Assembly (NCBI GenBank): GCA_964384035.1
Contig: CAYLIB010000004.1
Coordinates: 5,340-69,339, forward strand
Reading direction: 5' to 3'
DNA from: an uncultured Candidatus Saccharibacteria bacterium
Lineage (GTDB): Bacteria > Patescibacteriota > Doudnabacteria > UBA920
Length of the DNA: 64,000 nucleotides
Part shown: positions 46,628 through 62,483 of the stretch, piece after piece
Layout: every line of letters begins with the position of its first letter
How positions within the stretch are numbered: position 1 is the stretch's first letter
Notes under the pieces: model-generated
Database searches by the model: none
Told to the model about the DNA's origin: nothing
Seen by the model: only the letters and a program-made list of their open reading frames with translations
Program-made: the position numbers and the translations under genes

Positions 46628-46685
46628 CTTTACTACTATAGTTGCACTTGCAACTTGAGTGGTAAAGTTTTTTTATTTGACAGAT
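46627..46685 (+). terminator. Long hairpin (AACTTTAC ... GTAAAGTT with an inner GTTGCA-CT-TGCAAC palindrome) followed by a T8 run
   Basis: Read directly; the loop is unusually long. Confidence 0.45.
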
Positions 46686-46704
46686 TTTTGGGAAAGATTA
46701 TAAT
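46677..46704 (+). promoter_or_regulatory. Consensus promoter TTGACA-16-TATAAT in front of the nrtR-like gene; a GTGTA-N5-TACAC inverted repeat follows at 46705-46719
   Basis: Exact hexamers; the inverted repeat fits a GT-N7-AC core pattern. Confidence 0.6.
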
Positions 46705-46737
46705 GTGTATATCTTACACTAAGTAATAAATTTAGTA

Positions 46738-47412
46738 ATGACAAAGATTTTAAAAAAGTATAAACATGCTGTTATTGCAACCGATGTTGTAATTTTTACG
46801 GTGGATGAAAATAAGCTTAAAGTGTTACTGATTTCTATGAAGAAAGCTCCCTTTTCTGGGAAACTGGCTATTCCGGGTGGGTTAGTATTGGGAGATGAAT
46901 CTATAGACCAAGGAGCCGAGCGAATACTTCGTGAGAAGGCGGGTATAGAGAATGTATATTTGGAACAGTTGTATACATTTGGAAAAGTAGATAGGGATCC
47001 GTTTGGTAGGGTGGTCTCTGTGGCTTACTTTGCACTGCTTCCCAATACCCATGTCCAACTAAAGACCACCACGGAATATTCGGGGATTGGGTGGTATGAT
47101 GCTCGTAATTTACGAGGGTTGGCTTACGACCACGATGAAGTTTTAAGGACTGCAATTGAGAGGCTTAAGAATAAGATAGAGTATACGAACGTGGTTTATA
47201 GTCTGTTACCAAAGGAGTTTACTTTGACTGAGCTACAGAAAGTCTATGAAGTTATTTTGGATAGACGCTTGGATAAACGAAATTTTAGGAAAAAGCTTCA
47301 GGAAACGAAAATGCTTAAGAAGTTGGCTAAAAAGCAAAAAGATTCCGCGCATAGACCTGCTGAGCTTTATTCTTTTGTTAAAAAAACTATAACTAGAGTT
47401 CAAATGTTATAA
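46738..47412 (+). CDS. nrtR: NrtR-like Nudix-related transcriptional regulator (N-terminal Nudix fold with a degenerate Nudix box plus a C-terminal winged helix)
   Basis: Nudix region GGLVLGDESIDQGAERILREKAGI (RE..EE reduced to REKAG). C-terminal EFTLTELQKVYEVILDRRLDKRNFRKK matches the NrtR wHTH; it sits beside NAD salvage genes. Confidence 0.7.
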   Translation: MTKILKKYKHAVIATDVVIFTVDENKLKVLLISMKKAPFSGKLAIPGGLVLGDESIDQGAERILREKAGIENVYLEQLYTFGKVDRDPFGRVVSVAYFALLPNTHVQLKTTTEYSGIGWYDARNLRGLAYDHDEVLRTAIERLKNKIEYTNVVYSLLPKEFTLTELQKVYEVILDRRLDKRNFRKKLQETKMLKKLAKKQKDSAHRPAELYSFVKKTITRVQML

Positions 47413-47436
47413 GTTAGGCAATAAATTGGTTGATGC

Positions 47437-47448
47437 GTCAATATTGAC
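47437..47448. promoter_or_regulatory. Perfect 12-bp palindrome GTCAATATTGAC between the nrtR-like gene and the kinase-like gene
   Basis: Read directly. Confidence 0.3.
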
Positions 47449-47614
47449 ATTTTGGGTAAATTTTAGAAGAATATGCGGTATTTTGTTTCTGTTTCTGGCT
47501 TGAGAATTGGGGCCAAGGAAAATGCTAGGCCCTAAGTCTCTTGCTTGAAAAACCCTACGTGGGTGGCTCAGGCAGGAATGCACATATCAAAAGAATAGGA
47601 GGTTTAGTAGCCAA

Positions 47615-48454
47615 ATGAAAAGGATTACCAGTCCTAGTGGCGTGGTATACGAAGTTGATACTGATCTTCCTTTGGGTGAGACTGCAAACTTCAGAATGTA
47701 CGTTTGCAAAATACCCGATGGACGGATTGGCGTGCTTAAGTGCGCTGTCTCCATTGAGCAGAATGGGCTCCTTGACCGTGAAGCTTTCTTGCTTCGGCAG
47801 ATGACCGAGGAAGCAGAGCGACGGGAAAAGGTTTACCAGGCTCTCAAACCGGGGGCGGTGGCGCTCAACTATCATCTCTGTTTTCCAAGCCTTGTGGAGA
47901 GTTTTGTTTCGAATGACCAAGGTGGTCGACGGATTAACGTTATTGGATTCTTTGGAATCTGTGATGACCAAAGAGATTTGGTGCCGTTGGCCCATGTGGT
48001 GACTCGCGATAATGCTCGGGTAGACCCGAAAACAAGCGCGTGGATTCTGGGCAAGGCGCTCAAGAGTCTCGATTTCGCACACTCTCAGGGGATTGAACTC
48101 TCCTGGGTAGACGGCGAGAATATCTTGATTAATCGTGATGACCACTTTGTCGCGTTTTTCGATTGGAGTGCGGCTAAGGTACATCCTGATGGTAGTGTTC
48201 CAAAGGCGATTGTGCGGATCGAGATTTCTAAAATCGCTTCCGCTGTTCTATTCGCCTTGGGTGCAAGCGAAATTGGGATAATTCCACCAAGCGATCAACT
48301 CCCAGATGGTCGTTATGAAGACTTTCTGGTTTCCCTTTCCCGTGGTGCATTTAGCGAAGCGGGTCAGGCACATGCGAGATTCTATGAGCTTGTTGATTCC
48401 CTCTGGGGTCGCAAGTTTCATCCCTACACAACGTTTGAACTGACAGGAGAATAA
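47615..48454 (+). CDS. APH/ChoK-family (protein-kinase-like fold) small-molecule kinase, substrate unknown
   Basis: Brenner-like catalytic motif LSWVDGENILI and FFDWSAA (compare hGDlhpgNil / liDwEya). Preferred over the overlapping minus-strand ORF 47555-48184. Confidence 0.55.
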   Translation: MKRITSPSGVVYEVDTDLPLGETANFRMYVCKIPDGRIGVLKCAVSIEQNGLLDREAFLLRQMTEEAERREKVYQALKPGAVALNYHLCFPSLVESFVSNDQGGRRINVIGFFGICDDQRDLVPLAHVVTRDNARVDPKTSAWILGKALKSLDFAHSQGIELSWVDGENILINRDDHFVAFFDWSAAKVHPDGSVPKAIVRIEISKIASAVLFALGASEIGIIPPSDQLPDGRYEDFLVSLSRGAFSEAGQAHARFYELVDSLWGRKFHPYTTFELTGE

Positions 48455-48458
48455 GCAG

Positions 48459-49679
48459 ATGAAGAATAAAGGTGGTTACTCGAGAGATGCATTTACTGCC
48501 GTAGCCGAGGAGACAGTGAAAAGATCTGGTCCCAGTGTTACGGAGAAGGCGGAACAGCGTGCGAGAGAAGGGTTGGGTCTGCATGATCTGGTTGACCCGG
48601 CGAAGTATGGAATCGTTCGTCGTTCGCTTACCTACTATCAAGACTTGGGCGATGGTCGGTATACGATTCCTCGTGGTGTTGCTATGCCATGGGAGTCGCG
48701 GTCCGACACAACTGGATCTATGGGTTATAGCATTGACGGCGTTATGATCGTGTTGCCAACGCTCTACGATTTGCTCATTGAGGGTCCGAGTCCGGTACTT
48801 GGCCGGTATGACCTGCATGTGAGCAATGGTGCGTTTGGTGACAGGTCCGACCAGTTCGTGCTGATGCGTCCGCAGTTTGAAACAGACGAGAGGGTTCTCG
48901 AACAGATGACCTATATCGTTCCTGAGCGTGCGGGCGATGATCATCCCGAAGACCCTCACTATGGTTGGTTTGCGGCGGCGTTTTTAACCCACCGTTCAAT
49001 CAATCTCTATGACCTGAAAGCGTATGACACAACGATCACCGATGCCCCGGCGCGACTTGAGTTTGATGCCGATATCGTTGAAAGGATTTTCGGCAAAGAT
49101 GTCTGGCAGAAAGCAACGGAAAATGGTTATCAGTTGAATCCACGCAAGTTGCCTTCGGTCAGGGATGTTGTCGCTGAGATGCAGAAACGCGTCCATGGCT
49201 ATGTGGCGGTGGTTCAGAGATCGGGTTATGAAAGCGCGGTGCGTTTTTACACCTCGATGTTCGGTTCCGACCACGTCGTTGTTATCCCTACTACGAGCGA
49301 GCTTGGGAGGTTCGACAAATTGCTGAAGGCCAAGGAGCGTGATGAAGCGTACAGGCTCCAGGAAGGGCTTCATTACACAGCTTTGTTGCCAGCAATTCAA
49401 GCCGCGATCATCGGGCTAACCGAAGGGACTTTGGATTTACAGGGTCTTCGTGACTATCTGACTTCCAAGGACACCTTTGGAAACTCCGCGATTTCGACTG
49501 TTGAAGCAAAGGCAGTGGTTGATGCTGTAAAAGGCATCGCCATTGGAGCACAAGCTGTGCTTCCGAATTTCTCCAAGTTGCCGCCGAAGTTCTCGATTTT
49601 CGCCAACAAGAACGATCTGTGGCCAGTGGAAGCTGGTTCGGGGAGTTCTGACAAGGGCGAGTCGGGTGTCTGGTTGTAA
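48459..49679 (+). CDS. Hypothetical protein (406 aa), no recognisable motifs
   Basis: GC-rich ORF starting 5 nt after the kinase-like gene, consistent with co-transcription. Confidence 0.5.
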   Translation: MKNKGGYSRDAFTAVAEETVKRSGPSVTEKAEQRAREGLGLHDLVDPAKYGIVRRSLTYYQDLGDGRYTIPRGVAMPWESRSDTTGSMGYSIDGVMIVLPTLYDLLIEGPSPVLGRYDLHVSNGAFGDRSDQFVLMRPQFETDERVLEQMTYIVPERAGDDHPEDPHYGWFAAAFLTHRSINLYDLKAYDTTITDAPARLEFDADIVERIFGKDVWQKATENGYQLNPRKLPSVRDVVAEMQKRVHGYVAVVQRSGYESAVRFYTSMFGSDHVVVIPTTSELGRFDKLLKAKERDEAYRLQEGLHYTALLPAIQAAIIGLTEGTLDLQGLRDYLTSKDTFGNSAISTVEAKAVVDAVKGIAIGAQAVLPNFSKLPPKFSIFANKNDLWPVEAGSGSSDKGESGVWL

Positions 49680-49708
49680 ACTCGTTGAAAGAAAACTCAA
49701 TTGAACTC

Positions 49709-49742
49709 GGGTGAGCCTTAAACAAGTTCACCCACCCTTTTT
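49709..49742 (+). terminator. Rho-independent terminator
   Basis: GGGTGA ... TCACCC stem followed by CTTTTTAT. Confidence 0.55.
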
Positions 49743-49755
49743 ATAGAGGTGAAGG

Positions 49756-51144
49756 ATGGCAAGACAAGTTTTTACGGTTACCGACTTGGGTCCGGGTGAT
49801 GGCGGAAAAGGCGGAGTAGTTCACAAAATTGCTTCGCATAAGAAAGCACATACGGTCGTAAAAGTTGGTGGCGCGCAGGGTTGTCATGGTGTTCGTACCT
49901 CAAGAGGGGAAGTTTTCAACTTTAGCCAATTGGGTTGCGGAACCTTCGAAGGCGCAAAGACTTTCATTTCGAAGAATTTTGTGGTGGATCCGGGTGGTCT
50001 GTTGGTGGAAGCCAATGACCTTCGGTATTCACACGGTATTCGAGAAGTGTTTGAACTGTTGATCCTAGACGCCGACGCTTTGTGTACGACACCATTTCAC
50101 GGGATAGCATCGAGACTTAGGGAACTTGCTCGGAAAGAGAATCAGAAAGGAATTGTAGGGCTTGGGATAGGCGAAGCCTATTTGGACTCCGAACTTCACC
50201 CTGATTTAGCTATTCGAGTGGGAGACCTTTTGGGTAGCGGGCTTGAAGAAAAGCTTGAAGCGATTCGACTCTTAAAACTTCGAGAACTTTCGGACATAAT
50301 TGATAGAATGAGCGAGTTATGGCCGGGAGATATTGAGATGGCGAGAGAAGAAATTGCTTTCTTGCAGAACCCGAATGCAGTTAGGGTTGTGGCTAATAAG
50401 TACCGCGAGTTCGCGAGAACTGTGAGGATTGTAGACACAGACTTTCTTCGGAAAGATATTCTGTTGCGAGACGGAGTAGTGGTGTTTGAAAGTTCTCATG
50501 GGATACTTACGGACAGAATTCATGGGTTTTACCCTCATACCAGTAAACTTCGAACTTTACCGGAACTAACTACATTTAACCTGTTGGATGAATGTGGATA
50601 CAACGGTCAGGTTGTGAAGTTCGGGATTACGCGTGGTTACCAGATACGGCATGGTGCTGGGCCTATGGTGACGCATAATCCTGACCTCTCTGAGTTATTG
50701 CTTCCAGGAAGCAGTGGCGAAGAAAACCGATGGAGAGGTAAGGTGCGAGTGGGGCCGTTGGATTTTGTTTCTCTGCGGTATGCGCTAGGCATAATTGACC
50801 ACTTGGATGCGATTGCTGTTACGTGGTTCGACCAGATTGGAATTTTCGGGCAGTGGCAGATATGCGATAGTTATTCTGCAAATGACCCGAAAGGATTCCT
50901 GACGGAAGAAAAGCGAGACATTAAACGTGTTCAGCTTGAGGGACAAGCTAAGCTCGATTATCAAACAGAGCTAACCCGGTTTCTGTTTGGGTGCAAGCCT
51001 AATGTAACTCATCTTGCTCTTCCTGAGAATGGAAGTAGGCAAGGTATGTCGGGTTTGTGTTCAGAGGTTTTTGCTGAAAAGCTAGGTGTTCCCGTGAGAA
51101 TGATTTCATTTGGGCCTACAGAAGTAGAAAAAATTTTGTTGTAG
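49756..51144 (+). CDS. Divergent adenylosuccinate synthetase (PurA)-family ligase
   Basis: VFTVTDLGPGDGGKGGVVHKIA...VVKVGGAQGCHGV parallels PurA VVVLGTQWGDEGKGKIVD...VVRYQGGHNAGHT, with the catalytic Asp and His positions kept. GLGIGEAYLD parallels GRGIGPAYEDK. Confidence 0.6.
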   Translation: MARQVFTVTDLGPGDGGKGGVVHKIASHKKAHTVVKVGGAQGCHGVRTSRGEVFNFSQLGCGTFEGAKTFISKNFVVDPGGLLVEANDLRYSHGIREVFELLILDADALCTTPFHGIASRLRELARKENQKGIVGLGIGEAYLDSELHPDLAIRVGDLLGSGLEEKLEAIRLLKLRELSDIIDRMSELWPGDIEMAREEIAFLQNPNAVRVVANKYREFARTVRIVDTDFLRKDILLRDGVVVFESSHGILTDRIHGFYPHTSKLRTLPELTTFNLLDECGYNGQVVKFGITRGYQIRHGAGPMVTHNPDLSELLLPGSSGEENRWRGKVRVGPLDFVSLRYALGIIDHLDAIAVTWFDQIGIFGQWQICDSYSANDPKGFLTEEKRDIKRVQLEGQAKLDYQTELTRFLFGCKPNVTHLALPENGSRQGMSGLCSEVFAEKLGVPVRMISFGPTEVEKILL

Positions 51145-51178
51145 GCAGAGTTCAAAATAAACTTTGCCTAAATTTTTT
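51144..51178 (+). terminator. Rho-independent terminator
   Basis: GGCAGAGTT-CAAAATA-AACTTTGCC hairpin plus a T6 run. Confidence 0.6.
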
Positions 51179-51346
51179 AAAAGTAGATTGACAAAAGTAA
51201 TAAAATATTGTAGTGTGTACAGTCTTCGTGGTTAGTAGATTATTGGTGAAAATAATTTTTCGACAATAATCCGCTAGTCAACGCGACATGCGGGGAAGTT
51301 CTCGTACCTAACAACAACACAATTTCAATTGGAGGAAACAATTGCC

Positions 51347-52381
51347 ATGGCAATGAACGTTGAATTGAAAACACGACTCCAGTCCGAGGAATTCGGACTC
51401 AACGATGAACAGATCGGAAAGCTCGAAGCTGCTGGTTTGAAAGAAGCGACTGACTTCGCTCTTTTGAGCGGAACTCAGATTGCTGAAATCGCGAGCGTTG
51501 GAGTCATTACTGCGTTGAAGATTGGTCAGGCGTTTGCGCCTACGCCGGTCTTTACGGCTCCGGCTGCTGCAACCTCTGATTCCGATGATCACCCGATGAC
51601 TCCGCCGTCGAAAGCGGAGGTGAACAACTTTGCCGGCTCGCTCGGTATGAGTTCGGATGTTCTGATGATGGTCCTGATGGGCAATTTGGCCGGTGGTGGA
51701 ACAAACGGCATGGACTTTTCGGGCTTGATCCCTTATGGTCCTTTGCTGCTCAGTTATAACCCGCGCCGCAAAGATATCGCTTATCAGGTACTCGCATCGC
51801 TGGAACGCCAGCTTGGCACCGACATTATCGTCATCAACAGCGACGGCTCGATTAATCGAGAGCTGACGGCTCAGTACATTGAGTCCTTGGAGCAAGGGTA
51901 TGACTCGGCTCCTGACAACATCTACACGGATCGTAATGGTGAACTCCATGAGATCGTTCGTGTCGGTGTGGACGCGCAGAGTATCGCGGACGCGGATCCG
52001 CTCGATTCAACCAAGGCCCTTCAGCAGAACGGTCAGGGTATCGGTCGAATTCAGTGGGGTGGTGTCAGTCTCGACGTTCGTCAGACTGTTTACTTCGCCG
52101 TCAAGACTGGTGAAGTCGGTCCGGCCAATGAGTCCAGCCTGGTGTGGTTGCGTGACAACGTCAAACCCGGAATGAATCGTTTGATTTTGAGTCGCCAGGC
52201 TCCGAAGGCGATAGCAATGTTCAACGAAGCGTCTCGGACGGGCAACCTGCCCACTCTTCGGGTGATGCTGGGCCGTGGTCCACGCAAGCAGGAAGTGACG
52301 AATCGTCGCCGTTTTACTACGCCCAAGGACCTGAGTGGCATCGGTCGCAACAACCCCTTTAACGAAGACGATCGTCTGTAA
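51347..52381 (+). CDS. Hypothetical protein (345 aa)
   Basis: ATG at 51347 with GGAGG 12 nt upstream; the track's TTG start at 51329 is less likely. Preferred over the overlapping minus-strand ORF 51308-51949. Confidence 0.5.
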   Translation: MAMNVELKTRLQSEEFGLNDEQIGKLEAAGLKEATDFALLSGTQIAEIASVGVITALKIGQAFAPTPVFTAPAAATSDSDDHPMTPPSKAEVNNFAGSLGMSSDVLMMVLMGNLAGGGTNGMDFSGLIPYGPLLLSYNPRRKDIAYQVLASLERQLGTDIIVINSDGSINRELTAQYIESLEQGYDSAPDNIYTDRNGELHEIVRVGVDAQSIADADPLDSTKALQQNGQGIGRIQWGGVSLDVRQTVYFAVKTGEVGPANESSLVWLRDNVKPGMNRLILSRQAPKAIAMFNEASRTGNLPTLRVMLGRGPRKQEVTNRRRFTTPKDLSGIGRNNPFNEDDRL

Positions 52382-52391
52382 TCGTCTGAAT

Positions 52392-52421
52392 GGATAACTT
52401 TAAAAAGAGTTATCCTTTTTT
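52392..52421. terminator. Bidirectional terminator between convergent genes
   Basis: GGATAACT-TTAAAAAG-AGTTATCC hairpin plus a T6 run. Confidence 0.7.
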
Positions 52422-54363
52422 ATTTGTCCAGATTTGGGAGGAAAACTTTGTCTATATATAGTTTGCTCGCGAGTCTTCTGTAGCCGGGGTCCCAGAATGT
52501 ACTTTCACCGTCTACTTCTGCTTTGTGTTTGCTTCTAACTCCCGGTATGGCTGGATGGAATCTTTCGTAGCCTTTATGTAGTAGGCGATATTGTAATGTG
52601 TCGCGCTCCATGGCCTCTAGCCATATTCTTCTGGCTGGTTGGTTTTCTATTTTTTTGTCTTTTGGGTGCAAGAATCCTGGAAGAGTTTTTTTGTAAATTT
52701 CTTTAATGCTATCTGTGTTACCTACCCAAACGCCGCCTAAGAGTACGTGGGAAAGTGAGCTGTCGCCAAGATGGTTGTCTGGAGTTGGAAAGTCTTGGAT
52801 GTTTAATTCTTCTTCGGTTTCATATAGCCAAAACTGCATTGCTTCGCCTTCGGCTTTGTGGTTGCCGAAATGTGTTTTGAGTAACTTCTCTATTTGAGGT
52901 TTGTCAGTGGAAGGTATTCCTGGTTTGATAAATATAGCTATGTCTACGTCGGCTGTTATTTTTCCGTAACCTTTTACTTTAGAACCATACATAATGGCAA
53001 TGGGATAGATGAATTTAGAAAGTTCTGGATTTTCTTCAATGGTTTTAATCATCTCGTTTAGTTCTGAAATTTCTTTTTCCACCTGACTGTTTTCAATCGA
53101 AAATGCAGAATCTAACTTGGGGATTTTAAAACCTTTTTGTGAAATGCTATTTTCGTCTACAAGACCTAGAGAGTGTAGACGCGACCAAAACACTAACAGT
53201 GAATCTTGTATTTCTAGATCTCCGGTTTTTTGTATTTGCTCAAGTAAAGGTTCTAATCTTTTTAGTAAATCTTCTGTGTTCTGGGGTTTGGACTCAAGGG
53301 TTTTTCCTAATGTCTTGATGACTAGGAGTTTATAAACTTTACCTTCTGTATTGGCGATTCCCGATATTTGTTCTGGTGTTAGATTGCCTTCTTTTAAACT
53401 CTCGGATAGTGCTTCTGCGAATTGTTCTAGAATTGCGTTTTCCTCTGTGAGTCTTAGCCAATCTGCCCTGGCTTTGGGGAGGTTAGTGAGATTTCTTTCG
53501 TATCTTGTACTTAATTCGGCGAGTGATGTTTGAAATTTAATAGCTAGGTTAGTTTTTTCTAACTTAGGTTTTTCGGAATGTTGGGTATGTGTTACAGATT
53601 CTATTTGAGATTTTAAGTTTACTAATACATCTTCTCCAGATTCTTCCAATTGTTTTAGAAGTTCCTCTGAGAAAGGATTTTGTTCGTTTAGAATGAGTAG
53701 TGTGTCTGCTAGGCTTTGTTTTTGAATTGGGTCTTTTGCTTCGACGATTAGTTTAATAACATCGGAATGGGAGAGGTAGTTTTTTTCTACAAGCTTAACA
53801 GCAAGGTGGCCTGCTTTGGCGACTCTTGGTAGTGGTTCACTACGAATTTCTGGTTCGGGAATATTGCCGTCTTTGAAATTTGCCGGGATGTCAAAAATTT
53901 CTAACTGTTCATGCCAGCGTTGCATGTAGACCTCAGAGAAGTGTTTTGCGGATTCTGCAAGTGGTTTAGATTTCGTTTTTAGGTTTTTTTCTGGGAGTAA
54001 CTCGAAGGGTAAATATAAAATGAGTCGGCCGTAGTCTGGGTCGCTTAGTAGTTCTGTTAGTTTGTCGTATAGGTCGGCGAGTTCTTTTGGGGTTACTTGT
54101 TTTTCTTTTAGGGCTTCGGTGAAGTTTTTTGTGGGGTCGGGGATGCGCTCGAAAATAGCCCTAACCAGAACAGAGAGTTCTCGTCTTTTTTCGGCGAGTT
54201 GTTTTAATTCTGGGTTGTTTTTTATTTCTTCTGGCCAGGGGGACTCTGGGTCTTGTGGATTCAGTAAATATTCGGTGGCGGGTTTGAATACTTTTATGTT
54301 TTTTTCTTTTTCCCGAAATTCTTGTTGTGCTTCCGGGGGAGTGAATCTTTCTGCTGTAGTCAT
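52420..54363 (-). CDS. Large protein with a C-terminal Pol-beta-superfamily nucleotidyltransferase domain; N-terminal ~450 aa helical, unknown
   Basis: NTase motif GSKVKGYGKITADVDIAIF. The gene is conspicuously AT-richer than its neighbours (~33 % GC in a sampled line). Confidence 0.6.
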   Translation of the reverse strand: MTTAERFTPPEAQQEFREKEKNIKVFKPATEYLLNPQDPESPWPEEIKNNPELKQLAEKRRELSVLVRAIFERIPDPTKNFTEALKEKQVTPKELADLYDKLTELLSDPDYGRLILYLPFELLPEKNLKTKSKPLAESAKHFSEVYMQRWHEQLEIFDIPANFKDGNIPEPEIRSEPLPRVAKAGHLAVKLVEKNYLSHSDVIKLIVEAKDPIQKQSLADTLLILNEQNPFSEELLKQLEESGEDVLVNLKSQIESVTHTQHSEKPKLEKTNLAIKFQTSLAELSTRYERNLTNLPKARADWLRLTEENAILEQFAEALSESLKEGNLTPEQISGIANTEGKVYKLLVIKTLGKTLESKPQNTEDLLKRLEPLLEQIQKTGDLEIQDSLLVFWSRLHSLGLVDENSISQKGFKIPKLDSAFSIENSQVEKEISELNEMIKTIEENPELSKFIYPIAIMYGSKVKGYGKITADVDIAIFIKPGIPSTDKPQIEKLLKTHFGNHKAEGEAMQFWLYETEEELNIQDFPTPDNHLGDSSLSHVLLGGVWVGNTDSIKEIYKKTLPGFLHPKDKKIENQPARRIWLEAMERDTLQYRLLHKGYERFHPAIPGVRSKHKAEVDGESTFWDPGYRRLASKLYIDKVFLPNLDK

Positions 54364-54483
54364 GCATTTATCGTATACTGGACAATTAAACCTTACAAGA
54401 AGCTTGATTTTAGTGAGCTTTTTCTATATAGTGCAATTTCAGTTTTCTGAGTGTTGGAATTTCAAAAATGCAAAGGAGAAAAT

Positions 54484-55230
54484 ATGATGGAGCTGAAAAA
54501 TCGCTACGAAGGCGTGTTTGTTATGAGACCCAATGTAGCTTGTCTCAATACCGATACGCTAAATGGGTTCATGGAAGGATATCCTCTCGGTGTGCCAGGG
54601 TTCAATAAAGAGTTCACTCAAAGAGTAGTTAAGGTGAACTTGCAGACTCCCTTTGAAAGACGCGTGTTGCTTGGTGATAACCACCCCTACGATTCTTGGA
54701 CATACGCAAAGAATTTTAAGGTTCCGAATTTTGCTAAGATTACCTATGAGCAATCTTTGGGTTTTACTGAGGCGAGTTTTTTACCCGGGATGCGTTGGAA
54801 AAAGCAAAACTTGGTCAACTACCTTGCGAGAGTAGGAAGTATGACGGTTTTCCCCGAGCATTGTGGGGCTGGAACAGATGAGGTCCTGCCGCCACCGGAG
54901 CTGCTTGAGATCGGGTTTGGGTTGTACTGGCCAAAAGCCAATGGGTGGGCGGAATCTCATTCGGGGTTTACTGATGCTTATGGCGATGACACTGGTCTGG
55001 AAGCAGCTCTTCGCACCAGAGCGGTTAACACTCTTGTGGTTACAGGTGTTGTTACCGAGATTTGTGTTCACGCTACTGCAGAAGACGCAAAGCGAAGAGG
55101 GTTCGATGTTTTTGTGGTTTTGGATGCCATCGCCGAGCTTAGTCCGGATGGTGGTAGAAAAGCCCTACTTGATCTGGACAGGCAAGGTGTTAGGTTCCTG
55201 ACCAGCGACCAGATTCAGCTTCATTATTAG
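54484..55230 (+). CDS. Isochorismatase-family cysteine hydrolase, putative nicotinamidase (PncA-like)
   Basis: Catalytic-Cys region LVVTGVVTEICVHATAEDAKRRGFDVFVVLDA. AAGGAG lies 5 nt before the ATG at 54484; NAD-salvage context. Confidence 0.6.
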   Translation: MMELKNRYEGVFVMRPNVACLNTDTLNGFMEGYPLGVPGFNKEFTQRVVKVNLQTPFERRVLLGDNHPYDSWTYAKNFKVPNFAKITYEQSLGFTEASFLPGMRWKKQNLVNYLARVGSMTVFPEHCGAGTDEVLPPPELLEIGFGLYWPKANGWAESHSGFTDAYGDDTGLEAALRTRAVNTLVVTGVVTEICVHATAEDAKRRGFDVFVVLDAIAELSPDGGRKALLDLDRQGVRFLTSDQIQLHY

Positions 55231-55357
55231 AAAAGCTACCCGTGAAAGTAGTATTTTTTTATCTAAAAGTTGAGTCACATCGTGGACAATGTGTGGCTTT
55301 TGGATTATTATGCAGTCTTTCCTCTTGCCGAAAATTTAAACTATTTAGGGGGTAAAA

Positions 55358-55675
55358 ATGGTAATTGGTTATTTTGTCTGGGCGGCGATATATGGGGCTT
55401 TGGTGGCTCTTTTCACCGCTCTTGGATTTGACTTCGAGGCTAACAGCTTAAATGAGACGAAAGGACAAAGGTTGCTCAAGGCGGTAGTGGTGTCGTTTGC
55501 TTTTACGGCATTTACGTCGCTTCCTTTTGTCTATGTTCCGTGTGCTTTAATTAACTGGTATTTTAAGCCGGGCGGAGGCCTTGCTTTTAAGGCAGCTGGT
55601 ATATCGCTACCTTGGCTAATTTCCGTGATCTCGGCAGTTATGGTCTCCTTTTCAATAAAGCTTAGATATAAGTAA
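55358..55675 (+). CDS. Small membrane protein, hypothetical
   Basis: 105 aa with three hydrophobic helices. Confidence 0.45.
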   Translation: MVIGYFVWAAIYGALVALFTALGFDFEANSLNETKGQRLLKAVVVSFAFTAFTSLPFVYVPCALINWYFKPGGGLAFKAAGISLPWLISVISAVMVSFSIKLRYK

Positions 55676-55713
55676 GATACTGCGAAAGTTGTTCGCGGTT
55701 TTTTATTTAGGAT

Positions 55714-55742
55714 TTGATAAAAGGGCTTAAAATTGGTATTAT
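55714..55742 (+). promoter_or_regulatory. Promoter TTGATA-17-TATTAT upstream of the nadD-like gene
   Basis: Read directly. Confidence 0.55.
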
Positions 55743-55759
55743 TTAGTGTTTTAATACCA
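55734..55759. promoter_or_regulatory. Perfect 8-bp inverted repeat TGGTATTA-N10-TAATACCA overlapping the -10 element; candidate operator
   Basis: Read directly; a related half-site TGGTATT lies in the pncB promoter at 57583-57589. Confidence 0.4.
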
Positions 55760-55777
55760 TTTTTCAAGGAGAGGAAT

Positions 55778-56356
55778 ATGGAGAGACTTGCTTTGTTTGG
55801 AGGAGCGTTTGATCCGTTTGGGAATCATCATTTGGAAGTTGTTAACGCCTTAATCAAATGTCAGTTTGTGGACCGAGTTGTGGTTTTTCCTTCCGGGGAC
55901 AGGCCGGACAAGCCTTACATTACAAAAGGTGTTCACCGGGGGGAAATGATTCGTTTGGCTTGTGAGAGACTGCGAAGGGTGCAAGTAGATTTATCGGACA
56001 TCACGGAAGGGACTTATAGTCGGGCTTGGGACTTGCAGATGAAGTTTGGCAAGAAGTACGAAGTTCTGCATGTAATCGGTTCGGACTGGCTGGTGGTGGG
56101 TGAAGATGGAATTGTGCCGGTAAAGAAATGGTTTAAAGGAAACGAGCTTTGGGATAATGCGCAGTTCTTAATTGTTACAAGACCGGGGTTCGAATACGGT
56201 GCGATTCAGACACCGACGAAGTCTTTTACTTTAAAACTTGAGAGACAAGGTTCGAGTACGGAAATTCGGAATTTAGTGAAAGCGGGAAAATGTATTTCCG
56301 GACTTGTAGACCCCAAAGTGGAAAAGTATATTTATGAAAATGAGTTGTATGTTTAG
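55778..56356 (+). CDS. nadD: Nicotinate/nicotinamide mononucleotide adenylyltransferase (NadD/NadM-like)
   Basis: LFGGAFDPFGNHH (variant of the (H/T)xGH motif) and a C-terminal SSTEIR motif. Start taken at 55778 with AAGGAGAGG upstream. Confidence 0.7.
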   Translation: MERLALFGGAFDPFGNHHLEVVNALIKCQFVDRVVVFPSGDRPDKPYITKGVHRGEMIRLACERLRRVQVDLSDITEGTYSRAWDLQMKFGKKYEVLHVIGSDWLVVGEDGIVPVKKWFKGNELWDNAQFLIVTRPGFEYGAIQTPTKSFTLKLERQGSSTEIRNLVKAGKCISGLVDPKVEKYIYENELYV

Positions 56357-56493
56357 TCTGGCATGGACTGTTGTTTCTGTGCCAGAAATATTTTTAGAGG
56401 TTTTTATCTGAACTACTCGGATGGAAATTTCTGGGCTTGAAAAGTTCGAGCCTGAAGTACTAACAACCGAAGAAAATAATTGGAGGAAACGAG

Positions 56494-56556
56494 ATGCGGA
56501 AATTAATCGTGTCTACTGAGTTCAAAGCGGGTAAGTGGGTGATTGAAAAGATCTAG
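56494..56556 (+). CDS. 20-codon candidate leader peptide (MRKLIVSTEFKAGKWVIEKI) preceded by the recurring AATTGGAGGAAAC motif
   Basis: ATG lies 4 nt after GGAGGAAAC; the motif also occurs at 51327 and 57627. Confidence 0.25.
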   Translation: MRKLIVSTEFKAGKWVIEKI

Positions 56557-56574
56557 GATGCAACGGCGGGTTTG

Positions 56575-57534
56575 ATGAATGCTGGAGCGCCTATTTCTGA
56601 AAACTTTCCGGGTTTTGTTCCCGTCGTGTTTGGCACCACAGAGGGCGAGAATGAAAATTTTGATGTTCTTAAAAGCCAACTCGACCCGATCTATCAAGCG
56701 ATGTGTATTGACCCAAAGATCCGTGTGGGCGGTCCGTATGGTGACTACCTTACAGTGGTGGAATCTAGTGGTTCTTACACTCTCATTGAAGCGGGTTTGA
56801 AGGCGTGGCCGAAGGCGGCTATTGCTTCTGACCTGTTTCCGGTTATTATCACACCTTCGGGTAAGGTTTTCTTCGTTGGAATTGTTCGCGTGCAACCGCC
56901 GGGTGTTGGTGGACCAGCCTCGCTTGGTGGGTTCAATGGGGTGTTTGGACCTCACTTTGCTTCTTCGCCGGAATGCTTGCTTGGTTACGATAAAAAGGAG
57001 AAAGACGAGGCGCGTGAAGAGATTGGTATGAAGGTGTGGGTCAACAATGACATTCCCTTCGACCAGGAAACTCCATTCCCAGATATGGTTGCAGTCAAGG
57101 TTAAGATTGGCGAAAAAACCTATGAAACGTCAATCTACAGTCTTGGTGAGACGTATACTACGGAAGAAGAATACCTCCCAAATTTGAACGAACAGCGGGT
57201 GCATGCGGCTTGGGGTTACCTTATGCCGGTCGTGATTCACGAAGAAGTGACCAGAGAGGAATTGCTTGCCCAGTTCAAATGCAACGACCCTAAAGAGGGT
57301 AATGGCATTTATGTGCAAGAGATTACCGCTGAGTCTGGCTTCGAGCTTCCGCTACCCATTGGACATCATCAACGACTGTGGATGCGCGCGGTTCAATTGC
57401 TTCAAACTTTCACTGCGGCTACCATTAACCCGATCGGAGAACTTTTCCAAATTCTCGAAGAGGGGCTTGATTTTGCCTCGGAACGGTTTGCGCAATATGC
57501 TAACGGGGGCGGAAAGATTAAACCACTTGGTTAA
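56575..57534 (+). CDS. Hypothetical protein (320 aa) inside the NAD cluster
   Basis: GC-rich ORF between nadD and pncB; preferred over the overlapping minus-strand ORF 56503-56955. Confidence 0.5.
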   Translation: MNAGAPISENFPGFVPVVFGTTEGENENFDVLKSQLDPIYQAMCIDPKIRVGGPYGDYLTVVESSGSYTLIEAGLKAWPKAAIASDLFPVIITPSGKVFFVGIVRVQPPGVGGPASLGGFNGVFGPHFASSPECLLGYDKKEKDEAREEIGMKVWVNNDIPFDQETPFPDMVAVKVKIGEKTYETSIYSLGETYTTEEEYLPNLNEQRVHAAWGYLMPVVIHEEVTREELLAQFKCNDPKEGNGIYVQEITAESGFELPLPIGHHQRLWMRAVQLLQTFTAATINPIGELFQILEEGLDFASERFAQYANGGGKIKPLG

Positions 57535-57562
57535 GAGCTACTAAAAGGTAGTTCTTTTTTTA

Positions 57563-57591
57563 TTGACATTTAGGCTGAAAAATGGTATTTT
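57563..57591 (+). promoter_or_regulatory. Promoter TTGACA-17-TATTTT upstream of pncB, followed by the inverted repeat AAATCT-N5-AGATTT (57598-57614)
   Basis: Read directly. Confidence 0.55.
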
Positions 57592-57640
57592 TGGGCTTAA
57601 ATCTTGACCAGATTTCATTTCAATTGAATTGGAGGATTCT

Positions 57641-59227
57641 ATGAATAGTTTGACGTTGCCGAGACTTGGCATGCTTCAATCCGATATGTACCAGCTAACC
57701 ATGCTGTACGCATATTGGAAAAGTGGTACCCATAACAAGCATGCTGTATTTGATCTGTTTTTCCGCAAGACACCTTTCGGTGGAGAATTCGCGGTGTTTG
57801 CCGGGTTGTCTGATGTACTTAGCTATCTTGAGAATTTTCGGTTTACTGCCGAGGATATCGAGGTAGCTCGCGAGTTGTTACCGCACGCAGAACCTGCTTT
57901 CTTCGTTTTTCTTTCTGAGCTTGACGCGAGCGAAGTTAAAATTTACGCGCAACCTGAAGGTTCTTTGGTTTTTCCTCGGACTCCGCTGATTCGAGGCGAA
58001 GGCCCATTGGGTGTGCTCCAATACATGGAGACCACCTCGCTTAACCTCGTTAACTATGCGACTTTGGTTGCGACCAATGCGGCGAGGTTCAGGTTGGCTG
58101 CCGGACCGACTGCTGTGCTAATGGAATTTGGAATGCGTAGAGCGCAGGGTCTGGACGGCGCGCTGACTGCTTCCAAGTATACGTATCTGGGTGGGTTTGA
58201 TTACTCTTCCAATATGCGTTCGAAGCAGATTGATGGTGTTCCTTGTAGAGGTACTCATGCTCATGCTTTTGTCTCTTCCTTTACCGGACTTGAAGACATT
58301 ACGTCTCGGTCTATTACCATGCAAGATGGTGGTGTGAACCAGGACTTTGTCGGCATGGTCTTGCAAATGAGACGAGTGTTGGGCTACAACAAAACGAACG
58401 ATGGAGAATTGGCTGCGTTTATTAGTTACGCACAAGCTTTTCCGTCAGGATTTCTCGCTCTCGTGGACACCTATGACACACTGAAGTCCGGCATTCCTAA
58501 CTACATCTGTGTTGCTTCCGCTTTAGGGTGGATAGGTCTGAGCGCTCAAGGTATTCGTTTGGATTCTGGTGACTTGGCTTATTTATCAAAAGAGGCTAAG
58601 AAGATGATTCTGGATGCCAAAGAAAAAACCGGAGTGGATCTTTCAGGGCAAGCTTCAAAAATCGTGGCGAGTAACGACATTACCGAAGATATTTTGCTGT
58701 CCTTAAAGGAGCAGGGTCATGCAATTGATGTTTTCGGCATTGGAACTCATCTCGTAACCTGTTTGAAACAACCCGCCTTGGGTGGTGTTTATAAACTGGT
58801 GTCCATCGACGGTAAAGACCGGATAAAGCTGTCGCAAGAGAAAGTGAAAATTACTATCCCAGGTCGGAAGAAAGTTTTCAGGCTTTTCGATAGCAATTCG
58901 GAAATGATCGCCGATGTGATGGTGGAAGATGGAAACGCAGAGCCAGAGGAAGGTCAACCGTTTTTACTCAGAGATCCGTTCGATGAGTATAAGCAGATGG
59001 TTGTAGTGCCTTATGCTGTGGAGTCCAGACTCGAGTGTTATTGGGACGACGGTTTGCTTCGTAAGCCCACCTTACAACAAGGTAAGGATTTGCTTCAGTC
59101 TGAACTCAAGAAAATCCGCCCTGATCATTTGCGGTTCTTGAATCCAACACCATACAAGGTCTCGGTCGGTAGTGAACTTTTTGATAAGCTACACAGTCTC
59201 TGGAAGAAAGAGCTTGTGCTTATATAG
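57641..59227 (+). CDS. pncB: Nicotinate phosphoribosyltransferase (long eukaryote-like NAPRT type)
   Basis: LQSDMYQLTMLYAYWKSG...FDLFFRKTPFGGEFAVFAGL...LVATNAARFRLAAGP...RRAQG.DG.LTAS.Y.YLGGFD.SSN closely parallels NAPRT. ATG at 57641 after GGAGG. Confidence 0.85.
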   Translation: MNSLTLPRLGMLQSDMYQLTMLYAYWKSGTHNKHAVFDLFFRKTPFGGEFAVFAGLSDVLSYLENFRFTAEDIEVARELLPHAEPAFFVFLSELDASEVKIYAQPEGSLVFPRTPLIRGEGPLGVLQYMETTSLNLVNYATLVATNAARFRLAAGPTAVLMEFGMRRAQGLDGALTASKYTYLGGFDYSSNMRSKQIDGVPCRGTHAHAFVSSFTGLEDITSRSITMQDGGVNQDFVGMVLQMRRVLGYNKTNDGELAAFISYAQAFPSGFLALVDTYDTLKSGIPNYICVASALGWIGLSAQGIRLDSGDLAYLSKEAKKMILDAKEKTGVDLSGQASKIVASNDITEDILLSLKEQGHAIDVFGIGTHLVTCLKQPALGGVYKLVSIDGKDRIKLSQEKVKITIPGRKKVFRLFDSNSEMIADVMVEDGNAEPEEGQPFLLRDPFDEYKQMVVVPYAVESRLECYWDDGLLRKPTLQQGKDLLQSELKKIRPDHLRFLNPTPYKVSVGSELFDKLHSLWKKELVLI

Positions 59228-59254
59228 TAAGAAATTTTCTTACTTCTTTTTTCT
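59227..59254 (+). terminator. Rho-independent terminator
   Basis: GTAAGAA-ATT-TTCTTAC hairpin plus a T-rich run. Confidence 0.6.
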
Positions 59255-59301
59255 AGGTTCTAAACATTTGGAATTTGGAAATTGGGTTTTTAGGAGGAAT
59301 T

Positions 59302-59493
59302 ATGCTGCTAGTTAATACGCTCTTGGTTTATTGGAAAATTTGGCTTACTGGGTTTGGTGTGGGGATTGCTGTCTTCTTTTTTGGGGGCAGACAGTTTTAT
59401 ACATTGCTTGGTATGTTGATAAGTGTGGTATTCGGATTTTTGTTATTTGTACCACTTATCATAGTTGGGATAGTAAAGTTATTGCACTTGTAG
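59302..59493 (+). CDS. Small two-TM membrane protein
   Basis: TAGGAGG lies 4 nt upstream of the ATG at 59302. Confidence 0.45.
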   Translation: MLLVNTLLVYWKIWLTGFGVGIAVFFFGGRQFYTLLGMLISVVFGFLLFVPLIIVGIVKLLHL

Positions 59494-59565
59494 GCAATAA
59501 TTTCTTTTTTTCTTTCGCTAATAGAGATATTGGCGTAGGAAATTTGGAAATTTTAGGAGGGGAAT

Positions 59566-60531
59566 ATGAATTCGATTTTAGATCCGGAACAGGTGGTTAT
59601 GGTTAGTACGAAACCATACCAGTACTTCGCGGAACTGCTTGCGCAGAAACTTGGAATTCCTTTTGGGAAAATTAAGATTTCTCGTGAGAGGTTTTCTGAT
59701 GGCGAAGATTATTTGCGTGCAGGAATTGGCGATCGCAACGAACTTGCTGGTAAGGATGTAATTGTTGTTGGTGGGGGTCTGGATAATGCGAGTTTGATTG
59801 AAGTGGTTCGTCTTGGAAATATTTTTGCGCCTAATACGCGCAAAAGAATTTTCGTGAATCCGTTTCAAGCTTACTCAACCATGGAACGAGCGAAAAAACC
59901 AGGAGAGAGTGTAAACGATTGGCTTTACAATATTTACCACTCAATTCCGAACAACGGTTTGGGGAATGCTTTTATGTTCTTAGACCTCCACGAAGAAGGT
60001 CAGCTTAACTCTTTGAAACGTGATCGACAGGCTGCTTCTCTTTATGCAGAACCCGTCATGTTTGAAGCTATTCGTGGATTCACGCTTCCGGAGGTTTTTG
60101 GATCAGCAGATACCGGAAGGCCAGATTGGGTGAAGAGCTATGCGGATAAGTTTGACGTAGAGATTGCAGTCGTAGCGAAAGATCGTGACTTCGAAACTAC
60201 AAAACTTATGTACGCCATTGGTGACGTGGAAGGGAAGGTTGTCTGGATTTATGACGACATGATAAGGTCGTTCGGCACTGCTGAACTTGCGGTGAACGCT
60301 TACCTTTCAAGGGGCGCGAAGGCTGTTTATATGGCATCTACCCATATGACGCTTAACAACGGCAAATGGCGGCGGTGTCTGGACAAGCTGGAGCACTCCA
60401 AGGTCGCACATGTCATAACCACTAACTCGCATCCGGTAACGCAGAAGCTTGCCGTGAGTGGGTCGAAGAAAGTAACCGTTGTGGACGTGAGTGGTGTGTT
60501 CGTAGAACCGATACTCGCGTTACTCAGATAG
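59566..60531 (+). CDS. Ribose-phosphate pyrophosphokinase (Prs)-family protein, divergent
   Basis: RERFSDGEDYLR, LHEEGQL...LYAEPVM, AIGDVEGKVVWIYDDMIRSFGT and GAKAVYMASTH parallel Prs motifs. The canonical GYARQDRK loop is not obvious. Confidence 0.65.
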   Translation: MNSILDPEQVVMVSTKPYQYFAELLAQKLGIPFGKIKISRERFSDGEDYLRAGIGDRNELAGKDVIVVGGGLDNASLIEVVRLGNIFAPNTRKRIFVNPFQAYSTMERAKKPGESVNDWLYNIYHSIPNNGLGNAFMFLDLHEEGQLNSLKRDRQAASLYAEPVMFEAIRGFTLPEVFGSADTGRPDWVKSYADKFDVEIAVVAKDRDFETTKLMYAIGDVEGKVVWIYDDMIRSFGTAELAVNAYLSRGAKAVYMASTHMTLNNGKWRRCLDKLEHSKVAHVITTNSHPVTQKLAVSGSKKVTVVDVSGVFVEPILALLR

Positions 60532-60540
60532 GAGAACTAA

Positions 60541-62385: not shown

Positions 62386-62392
62386 TAATACT

Positions 62393-62417
62393 ACTCACTT
62401 TTTAGTGAGTTTTTTTA
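62393..62417 (+). terminator. Rho-independent terminator
   Basis: ACTCACT-TTTT-AGTGAGT hairpin plus a T7 run. Confidence 0.7.
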
Positions 62418-62483
62418 TTGACTAAACTTGGTAAATAGATGAATATATAGTGTTTTCCAGCAAATTTTCAACTAGGAGGAAGT

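Follow-up and report, generated by a model that had tools for sequence, protein, structure and literature searches.

Several described systems resemble single parts of a five-gene cassette that lies in a 64,000-nucleotide stretch of DNA (the window) from an uncultured Candidatus Saccharibacteria bacterium. The cassette encodes, in this order, a kinase-like protein, a von Willebrand A (vWA) protein, a protein like the adenylosuccinate synthetase PurA, a helix-hairpin-helix (HhH) protein and, on the opposite strand, a nucleotidyltransferase. It stands between the gene of the regulator NrtR and a set of NAD salvage genes. A sizeable part of bacterial diversity is accounted for by Patescibacteria: mostly uncultured organisms with tiny genomes that rely on hosts for their nucleotides. 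A five-gene module that keeps its order across classes of this Candidate Phyla Radiation (CPR) likely belongs to the core biology of the group. Tentatively, and with a probability of only about 0.4, we read the five genes as one functional module, ancient and widespread in Patescibacteria. Their products would form a protein complex that performs a GTP-driven, non-canonical nucleotide transformation tied to NAD and ADP-ribose turnover.

PurA and PurZ share with the PurA-like protein of the cassette the full-length fold, the GDxGKG P-loop, the Asp13/His41 pair, Asp333, the S-x-G-P motif and the G-x-G-x-G-x-A-Y loop. Because these features are conserved, two-step chemistry is plausible for the PurA-like protein as well: GTP-dependent O-phosphorylation, followed by displacement by an amine. 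In contrast to PurA and PurZ, however, the protein falls far under the cut-offs of the respective models (79-87 versus about 400 bits, and 15 versus 300 bits). Its gene always sits in the five-gene cassette, alongside those of a vWA protein and a probable pseudokinase, has no purB nearby and is not phage-borne.

The TerY-P triad consists of a TerY-like vWA protein, a Ser/Thr kinase and a PP2C phosphatase (PMC11090510, citing Anantharaman et al. 2012 and Gao et al. 2020). In the cassette, too, a kinase-fold gene adjoins a gene for a vWA protein with a predicted metal ion-dependent adhesion site (MIDAS). The two products are probably paired, and they are fused in one natural protein of the cassette families. 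Unlike the triad, the cassette has no PP2C gene, its kinase lacks the catalytic Asp, a zinc ribbon and an OB fold, its partner is a PurA-like enzyme, and its distribution is lineage-wide rather than patchy. We rejected membership in the TerY-P family: PP2C is missing, PADLOC finds nothing in the vWA proteins, and the kinases match only generic defence-kinase models such as PD-T4-6, MkoA and mad6.

The NrtR regulon (Rodionov et al. 2008, PMC2330246) offers a regulatory comparison. Its regulator combines a Nudix domain with a winged helix-turn-helix, and its operators are palindromes of about 19-21 bp with the common core GT-N7-AC. The palindromes described below are of the same kind and stand upstream of nrtR, pncA, nadD, nadE, nadB, a nadM-like gene and, in many loci, the cassette. 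The difference is that no more than about 20-30% of the cassette loci have an operator that can be detected. Since Pfam does not recognise four of the cassette families, these four cannot have been annotated as members of an NrtR regulon.

The phage pathway NARP1 pairs Adps, a PRPS-like enzyme, with Namat, a NAMPT-like enzyme; ADP-ribose is activated by phosphoryl transfer and then coupled to nicotinamide (bioRxiv 10.1101/2024.02.11.579819, PMC12774641). NARP1 is a conceptual analogue only. It would fit an ADP-ribose-responsive control of the cassette, but none of the five cassette proteins matches a PRPS-like or NAMPT-like fold, and we found no link by experiment or sequence. NARP2 and NARP3 use NMNAT, NadR and PnuC types (PMC13464706), a composition unrelated to that of the cassette. 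Finally, the minimal nucleotidyltransferases of the MNT/HI0073 group (MntA antitoxins) share with the 647-aa cassette protein a G-S...D-x-D core followed by a helical domain. In the cassette protein, unlike in these antitoxins, the core is fused to a HEAT/ARM-like solenoid of about 430 aa, and there is no adjacent HEPN toxin gene.

We searched the literature on PurA-like proteins and Patescibacteria, on NrtR and Saccharibacteria, and on the combination of vWA protein, pseudokinase and nucleotidyltransferase. With incomplete coverage, this search returned no description of the cassette and no paper that names NrtR together with Saccharibacteria. We rate the five-gene ensemble, three proteins of which escape both Pfam and NCBIfam, as new as a system.

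Conservation of the cassette in Patescibacteria

We compared 83 loci, 80 of them genome loci fetched through the PurA-like protein and three from metagenomes, each taken with 10 kb on either side. Open reading frames (ORFs) in all six frames were searched with iterated hidden Markov models built from the window proteins. ORF starts in the compared loci are approximate. Because the loci were collected through the PurA-like protein, all synteny counts are conditional on its presence. The kinase-like family is present in 77 of the 83 loci and the vWA family in 81; the gene-4 family and the family of the 647-aa nucleotidyltransferase are each present in 73. In 56 loci the order is exactly that of the window, with the kinase-like, vWA, PurA-like and gene-4 genes on one strand and the nucleotidyltransferase gene on the other. 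Departures from the full order are mostly contig ends. Such a grouping is far beyond chance. Spacing is tight as well: the median gaps along the cassette are 15, 44 and 33 nt, and the convergent stop codons lie about 78 nt apart.

Hence the first-pass annotation of this DNA, a model's reading of the letters, was right to treat the genes as a conserved functional block, and conserved synteny is found elsewhere, in several CPR classes. The grouping that it proposed stands, but its four-gene extent does not, as it overlooked the convergent fifth gene (52420-54363). Its four co-directional ORFs are all present on the + strand.

Locus taxonomy was taken from record titles, some of which are automatic and clearly unreliable (for example, 'Gammaproteobacteria'). 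By these titles the loci come from Paceibacteria-type groups, from Saccharimonadia including Nanosyncoccus (L073, L077), and from Falkow-, Uhr-, Moran- and Daviesbacteria. The databases hold more than 800 homologues of the PurA-like protein. Those listed are 49-57% identical to it, and among them every homologue with an organism name belongs to Patescibacteria (Paceibacterota, Sungbacteria, Ryanbacteria, Minisyncoccia and others). The window is therefore a piece of a CPR genome.

This distribution bears on a possible role in anti-phage defence or inter-bacterial conflict, in which the cassette would target nucleotides or NAD and sit on a mobile island, hence the higher GC. The kinase-like protein has a weak PADLOC match to the defence kinase PD-T4-6 (6.6e-5), and PHROG families of the 'kinase' and PurZ types match cassette proteins. 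The GC content is above that of the left part of the window, and the flanking genes vary between loci. Yet CPR classes have kept both the gene order and the sequences (about 40-57% identity) in a way that looks vertical. In IMG/VR the PurA-like gene occurs on only 3 of 2.9 million viral contigs, and one of these, 408 kb long, is probably cellular. We recognised no effector (nuclease, TIR, SIR2 or pore) in the cassette and no integrase or repeats at its borders; four of its five proteins have no PADLOC match below E = 0.003, and the rise in GC also spans the housekeeping NAD operon. A defence role is thus highly improbable.

A side observation concerns two loci of our set (L002, 13044-15536; L003, 12816-15359), in which a homologue of the major vault protein (Pfam Vault_3 and MVP_shoulder, 830-847 aa) directly follows the cassette. 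Its host is a Paceibacterota contig.

The PurA-like protein

Gene 3 (49756..51144, + strand) encodes the PurA-like protein of 462 aa. It matches PF00709 over its full length (residues 14-455, 125 bits, E = 3.9e-36, cut-off 27). The NCBIfam purA equivalogs TIGR00184 and NF002223 give 78.6 and 86.9 bits, whereas their cut-offs are 395.6 and 402. The PurZ model NF038379 gives 15.4 bits against a cut-off of 300. PHROG 1211, a PurZ-type family, matches at 1.3e-38, which reflects the common fold. A phage origin or PurZ identity was rejected on the score of the PurZ model, the three viral loci and the named homologues, all patescibacterial.

To compare active sites, we mapped the protein to the PurA of E. 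coli and tallied residues across 79 members of its family. The side that binds GTP and performs catalysis is kept. The P-loop GDGGKG is retained, with the lysine K18 (PurA Lys16) in 79 of 79 sequences. The equivalent of the catalytic Asp13, D15, is found in 78 sequences and that of His41, H44, in all 79. The guanine-specificity residue Asp333 has its counterpart, D359, in 79/79. The serine of the S-x-G-P motif (PurA Ser414-x-Gly-Pro), S451, occurs in 70/79. Lys331 is replaced by an invariant Trp. On these points the first-pass annotation, which had credited the protein with a P-loop and with catalytic Asp and His equivalents, is borne out.

The substrate side looks different. We take Asn38, Thr129, Thr239 and Arg143' of E. 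coli PurA to be ligands of the IMP 5'-phosphate, and Gln224 to be a ligand of the base. In the family Asn38 is replaced by Gln (77/79) and Thr129 by Ile or Val (78/79). Thr239 is kept as Ser or Thr, and Arg143 has no conserved counterpart (Glu, Gln or Lys). Gln224 has become His in 77/79. The L-aspartate site, presumably the loop Thr300-Thr301-Gly-Arg303-x-Arg305 together with Val273, is rebuilt throughout. The loop ATTGRRRR reads RWRGK-VR in the window protein (HMMER alignment), and the family consensus is ENRWQGKVRVGPLD (R-W-Q-G-K-V-R) with R325, G328 and R331 invariant. Val273 is His in 79/79. By this mapping the GTP site and the catalytic Asp and His are predicted to be intact, and the IMP 5'-phosphate and aspartate sites to be remodelled. 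The replacement residues are themselves invariant. Therefore the active site looks re-specified rather than decayed.

Should the protein be a highly diverged housekeeping adenylosuccinate synthetase, it would supply AMP for salvage or NAD, and its neighbours would be regulators or unrelated genes. The full-length PF00709 match, the conserved Asp/His pair, P-loop and guanine Asp, and the public annotations as adenylosuccinate synthase all favour this view. CPR proteins are generally very divergent, and co-regulation with NAD genes could make sense, as AMP/ATP is a substrate of NadD, NadE and Prs. The view is nevertheless unlikely. The protein scores far too low for the purA equivalogs, and the substrate residues of a bona fide PurA are not all there: Thr129, Arg143 and Gln224 are lost, and the whole aspartate loop (T300, T301, R303, R305) gives way to invariant residues. 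It was therefore correctly called a paralogue before. A 2026 preprint (bioRxiv 10.64898/2026.06.21.733656) reports that de novo nucleotide synthesis, that of purines included, is missing from 93% of Patescibacteria genomes. No PurB homologue was found in the 64-kb window or in the 83 loci with their 10-kb flanks, a weak argument since the two genes are not necessarily linked. A housekeeping PurA also leaves four strictly co-conserved partner genes unexplained.

If it is a paralogue with a rebuilt pocket for acceptor and nucleophile, the PurA-like protein may bring to light new GTP-dependent C-N ligase chemistry, just as PurZ did with the Z-genome. In public records it is routinely mis-annotated as 'adenylosuccinate synthase', and this probably inflates the calls for purine metabolism in metabolic reconstructions of CPR bacteria.

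The partner proteins

Gene 1 (47615..48454, + strand) encodes the kinase-like protein of 279 aa. The window protein has no Pfam or NCBIfam match; PHROG 3043 ('kinase') matches it at 1.8e-11, in addition to the weak PD-T4-6 match mentioned above. Compared with PDB profiles, the family profile finds the catalytic loop of CK2alpha at 1.4e-7. Among 60 family sequences, over which the following residues were also counted, Pfam Pkinase weakly matches 16 and APH only 3 (best APH E 0.007). The position of the HRD Asp (window residue 164) holds Asn, Gln, Leu or Trp, so that the catalytic Asp is absent, and the following Lys is replaced by Thr, Asn or Asp. At the beta3 Lys position, Lys (29/60) and Gln (28/60) are about equally common. 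On the other hand, His177 is present in 60/60, the catalytic-loop Asn (N169) in 57/60 and the Asp of D-W-S, the DFG equivalent (D183), in 50/60. The Mg ligands N169 and D183 thus appear to be mostly kept. With no HRD Asp and a variable beta3 Lys position, gene 1 probably encodes a pseudokinase of the protein-kinase fold. An APH/choline-kinase identity (PF01636, Brenner H-x-D-x4-N) was rejected, since the HxD is missing and APH matches only those 3 of 60 sequences. The first-pass annotation had assumed such an APH-like kinase with Brenner motifs. The peptides and motifs that it named (LSWVDGENILI and FFDWSAA here, GDGGKG and GIGEAY in the PurA-like protein) do occur in the translations, but the kinase-like family has no His-x-Asp, and its weak matches are to protein kinases and hardly to APH.

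Gene 2 (48459..49679, + strand) encodes a 406-aa protein for which sequence searches of Pfam, NCBIfam, PHROGs, PADLOC and PDB profiles gave nothing. Earlier it was listed as an unknown. An AlphaFold2 model built from a 46-sequence alignment (predicted local distance difference test 88.7, predicted template modelling score 0.89) assigns it a Rossmann-like vWA fold, and this fold is identified by structure prediction only. D83-x-T85-x-S87 (DxTxS) and D195 are invariant in the family, and the DxTxS motif is a predicted metal site of the MIDAS type. Of the MIDAS pattern DxSxS...T...D, the middle Thr has no clear equivalent, for which E164 and D165 are invariant candidates. A helical C-terminal domain follows, then a flexible or disordered tail that ends in [W/Y]-L. 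A profile search of 1.84 billion cluster representatives returned only 563 relatives. One of these, P0307 (679 aa), is a natural fusion of kinase-like and vWA parts; its kinase-like half looks more degenerate still in the BLASTP alignment. The vWA/MIDAS identity points to a protein complex rather than to a linear small-molecule pathway.

Gene 4 ends at 52381 on the + strand. The mechanical ORF starts at a TTG (51329, 350 aa), but the true start is probably the ATG at 51347 (344 aa, 51347..52381), with which the public gene call agrees and which has a GGAGG 11 nt upstream. The N-terminal ~70 aa form an HhH domain (PDB profiles: RAD51 N-domain 1.1e-3, RNAP alpha-CTD 3.9e-3). Beyond this domain, Pfam, NCBIfam, PHROGs, PADLOC and PDB profiles gave nothing. 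The subtype of the window, shared with seven loci, has only these ~70 aa in common with the majority subtype (hhalign probability 97.7), and no column is invariant across the family. With a body that varies between lineages and a basic C-terminal tail, the protein looks like an adaptor with an exchangeable body.

Gene 5 (52420..54363, - strand) is convergent and encodes 647 aa. An N-terminal alpha-solenoid (HEAT/ARM-like, about 430 aa) is followed by a minimal nucleotidyltransferase and a helical C-terminal domain. The profile search returned only 11 proteins, so the structure model comes from a shallow 11-sequence alignment. By both sequence and structure, the best matches are minimal nucleotidyltransferases of the MNT/HI0073 type at residues ~445-500, below the Pfam cut-off. 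G460-S461 and D472 are invariant and D474 is conserved to at least 90%. The protein shows the pattern of a Pol-beta/MNT-type core, hG[GS]...[DE]x[DE], and the transferase is predicted to be intact. Together with the GTP/catalytic site of the PurA fold and the MIDAS site of the vWA protein, it makes up the three predicted intact centres of the cassette.

Distant vWA relatives lead to divergent cassettes. One of them, L092, has homologues of all five genes. In L095-97 two tandem kinase/vWA/PurA-like triads lie in one low-GC genome (L095, 509-12435); the first triad, preceded by a gene of the PRK/uridine-kinase family, has a gene of the gene-4 family, and the second a nucleotidyltransferase. The kinases of L094 and L095 module A, which adjoin vWA relatives, are recognised by Pfam Pkinase. 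As the divergent variants L092 and L095 keep the triad, the conserved core is kinase fold, vWA and PurA fold. This triad extends the theme of a vWA protein plus a kinase beyond conflict systems. L057 and L095 module A encode a second, intermediate PurA-like paralogue with GDEGKG and Gln224 retained but with the N-x-W-Q-G loop of the cassette family. As a side note, the 647-aa homologue of L092 (11525-14266, - strand) is 913 aa long and carries an extra N-terminal domain of about 330 aa with a motif like that of type-I phosphoribosyltransferases, LMVFDTCQHTGMS. Reading this extension as a phosphoribosyltransferase found no support in sequence searches of Pfam and PDB.

Could the cassette be a regulatory machine that modifies proteins? 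The kinase-like and vWA proteins would then form a TerY-P-like switch, the MNT-type transferase would, like MntA, have a protein as its target for nucleotidylation, and no free small-molecule product would arise. The PurA-like protein would be a GTP-binding sensor or a ligase acting on protein or nucleic acid. The vWA/MIDAS protein, the HEAT-like repeats, the pseudokinase and the HhH adaptor are all interaction modules, pairs of vWA protein and Ser/Thr kinase are known from TerY-P triads (PMC11090510), and distant vWA relatives adjoin true Pkinase genes. The closest structural match of the transferase domain is an MNT antitoxin, and the variable body of gene 4 is what one expects of a specificity subunit. 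However, the cassette encodes no PP2C phosphatase, no PADLOC model, TerY-P included, matches the vWA proteins, and a kinase without its catalytic Asp makes no phosphorylation switch evident. The invariant catalytic Asp/His and P-loop of the main PurA-like family argue for turnover, not mere sensing. Near-universal vertical conservation and NrtR control are also unlike accessory signalling or defence modules. We regard a protein-directed machine of this kind as somewhat unlikely.

NrtR operators, NAD genes and the rest of the window

The regulator gene nrtR (46738..47412, + strand) lies directly upstream of the cassette. Its product is by its matches a Nudix-related, ADP-ribose-responsive repressor (Pfam NrtR_WHD 1.8e-26 and NUDIX 4e-12; NCBIfam NF050029 2.4e-49). 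When we clustered the flanking genes of all loci, the only specific recurrent neighbours beyond the five families were NrtR (17 loci), NadE (7), NAPRT (6), PncA (5), NadD (5) and an ADP-ribosylglycohydrolase-like protein (5); a generic ABC ATPase recurs in 10. The ADP-ribosylglycohydrolase-like gene (L034, 4406-5464; L062, 12735-13793; three other loci) has a weak match to the ADP-ribosylarginine hydrolase Tri1 (6e-8), and an NrtR box precedes the copy in L062.

In the window alone a first operator guess, GTGTA-N5-TACAC, stayed at chance level (18 sites observed, 18 expected). The operator signal emerged only in cross-locus comparison. From the regions upstream of nrtR, pncA, nadD and the kinase-like gene we derived the palindrome TAGTGTA-N5-TACACTA. 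With at most two mismatches it has 47 sites in 1.4 Mb, compared with 4-12 in shuffles; with three mismatches the count is near that of shuffles. We counted loci with a site within 300 nt upstream of a gene. The same loci served both to derive the model and to count its sites; the controls (other upstream regions and shuffles) were clean. The first gene of the cassette, the kinase-like gene, has an operator in 16 of 76 cases at two mismatches and in 24 of 76 at three. Upstream of the PurA-like gene there is none (0/84 at either threshold), and upstream of the vWA gene 0/77 and 2/77. The corresponding counts are 5/9 and 6/9 for pncA, 3/6 at both thresholds for nadD, and 4/18 and 6/18 for nrtR. 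Further sites precede nadB, nadM-like, nadE and ADP-ribosylglycohydrolase-like genes. Many cassette boxes have no nrtR nearby, and therefore the box is not a by-product of adjacency.

The link to NrtR and NAD that was suspected from the window is thus real at the level of neighbourhood and operator sites, and predicted regulation supports a tie between the cassette and NAD. It gives a concrete handle, NAD/ADP-ribose turnover, on an otherwise opaque module. That the cassette acts on an ADP-ribose-derived metabolite is something that we purely infer.

In the window an NrtR-type operator (ATGTGTATATCTTACACTA, 46703..46721, unstranded) has two mismatches and an intact GT-N7-AC core. It overlaps the -10 element of the nrtR promoter (46677-46704, 12/12 hexamer matches) and is placed 35 nt ahead of the nrtR ATG. 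A sigma-70-like promoter upstream of the kinase-like gene (TTGACA-17-AAGAAT, 47444..47472, + strand) is a consensus match only, at 10/12. The terminator scan predicted no terminator between nrtR and the kinase-like gene. A weaker NrtR-like box (TATTGTAGTGTGTACAGTC, 51206..51224, unstranded) with three mismatches and an intact GT-N7-AC core lies about 120-140 nt upstream of gene 4. Taken alone this candidate is at chance level; its position is its only support, as L022 and L056 have one-mismatch boxes at a similar position.

How might such a module work? We propose that in a substantial fraction of lineages it would be under an NrtR operator together with NAD salvage genes and would be switched on when ADP-ribose signals NAD breakdown. 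We infer the complex from the tight gene spacing, the kinase-vWA fusion and the conserved C-terminal tail motif: all five proteins would assemble, with the kinase-fold, HhH and vWA proteins as non-catalytic partners. With GTP as the donor, the PurA-like subunit would phosphorylate an oxygen of an acceptor of the nucleotide type, though not free IMP, and then couple this acceptor to a nitrogen nucleophile different from aspartate. Supply, modification or gating of the substrate may fall to the transferase and scaffold subunits. Overall, the module would recycle or redirect adenylate- or ADP-ribose-type material during NAD turnover in organisms without de novo nucleotide synthesis.

Several points weigh against this proposal. 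The loci are related by descent, and therefore the synteny counts are not independent events. In at least two thirds of the loci neither a recognisable box nor an NAD neighbour is seen; the tie to NAD may thus be co-regulation particular to some lineages rather than the core function. In the window itself, no box at up to three mismatches precedes the kinase-like gene, so that NrtR could act here only through transcription running on from the nrtR promoter or through the weak box ahead of gene 4. In two divergent copies of the PurA-like protein, Gln (L092) or Glu (L095 module B) stands in place of the catalytic Asp, which weakens the case for uniform chemistry across the wider family. The vWA protein, the HEAT repeats and the pseudokinase suit a regulatory, protein-directed machine at least equally well. 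Substrate, product and interactions are all predictions from sequence and models, and the roles assigned to the residues of E. coli PurA follow the crystallographic and mutagenesis literature on that enzyme.

A bolder version makes the PurA-like protein a ligase that reconstitutes NAD. GTP would phosphorylate the anomeric C1'' hydroxyl of ADP-ribose, and the ring nitrogen of nicotinamide or nicotinate would displace the phosphate, so that NAD or NaAD is made again from the two products of NAD cleavage. Phosphorylation at this hydroxyl is formally the same as the action of PurA on the O6 of IMP. The idea also fits the weakened 5'-monophosphate pocket, the exchange of the aspartate loop for an invariant Trp-containing segment and a life based on scavenged nucleotides. 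Channelling or gating of the reaction would be the task of the vWA, pseudokinase, HhH and transferase subunits, but as it stands the idea leaves these four partner proteins unexplained, and we consider it very unlikely. If true, cells would have a counterpart of phage NARP1 that needs one enzyme only and is induced through NrtR, the sensor of ADP-ribose.

The NAD salvage operon downstream of the cassette (54451..62385, + strand) holds the full Preiss-Handler set. The four genes flagged at first do lie between regulator and salvage genes. All of its genes are on the + strand: pncA (54451-55230), nadD (55733-56356), a 320-aa gene (56572-57534), pncB (57629-59227), a prs-like gene (59566-60531) and a glutamine-dependent nadE (60541-62385). 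The pncB product passes the NAPRTase equivalog cut-off (474 versus 297). For the 320-aa gene between nadD and pncB, Pfam, NCBIfam, PHROGs and PADLOC give no match, and none of the other 83 loci has a homologue. The prs-like gene reaches 113.4 bits, just above the ribose-phosphate diphosphokinase subfamily cut-off of 113 and well under all equivalog cut-offs. The phage ADP-ribose pyrophosphokinase Adps is likewise PRPS-like, and the substrate of this gene may merit a check. Between pncA and nadD lies a hydrophobic ORF of 105 aa (55358-55675) that public records also call a gene.

The genes of the cassette are punctuated by hairpins. A terminator-like hairpin on the + strand with an 11-bp stem and a T-run (51142..51170, tail AATTTTTTAA) directly follows the PurA-like gene. 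Between the convergent genes 4 and 5, the hairpin GGATAACTTTAAAAAGAGTTATCC is followed by a T-run on the + strand (52392..52415) and is likely a terminator common to both. A further hairpin, GGGTGAGCC...GTTCACCC followed by CCCTTTTTAT, lies at 49709-49745 between the vWA and PurA-like genes. It is absent from the list of the terminator scan and may serve as an attenuator or terminator inside the cassette. The kinase-like and vWA genes are as tightly spaced as first described, but their gap measures 4 nt (48455-48458) and not 5.

The GC content of the window peaks at 48-50 kb, where 1-kb windows reach 0.51 and 0.50. The cassette genes had been described as those with the highest GC. The peak is indeed theirs, but the entire block from 47 to 64 kb (nrtR, cassette and NAD operon) has 43-51% GC, whereas the preceding ~46 kb have 32-42%. 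As the NAD operon is GC-rich too, high GC is not specific to the four flagged genes. The rise across 47000-64000 could mean an acquired island or a strong amino-acid constraint.

Far upstream, a perfect palindrome of the NrtR-operator type (CAGTGTAGACGTTACACTG, 5271-5289) stands about 80-95 nt before a small hydrophobic ORF (5367-5615). The ORF may encode a membrane protein, and the palindrome may be a further regulon site or a chance match.

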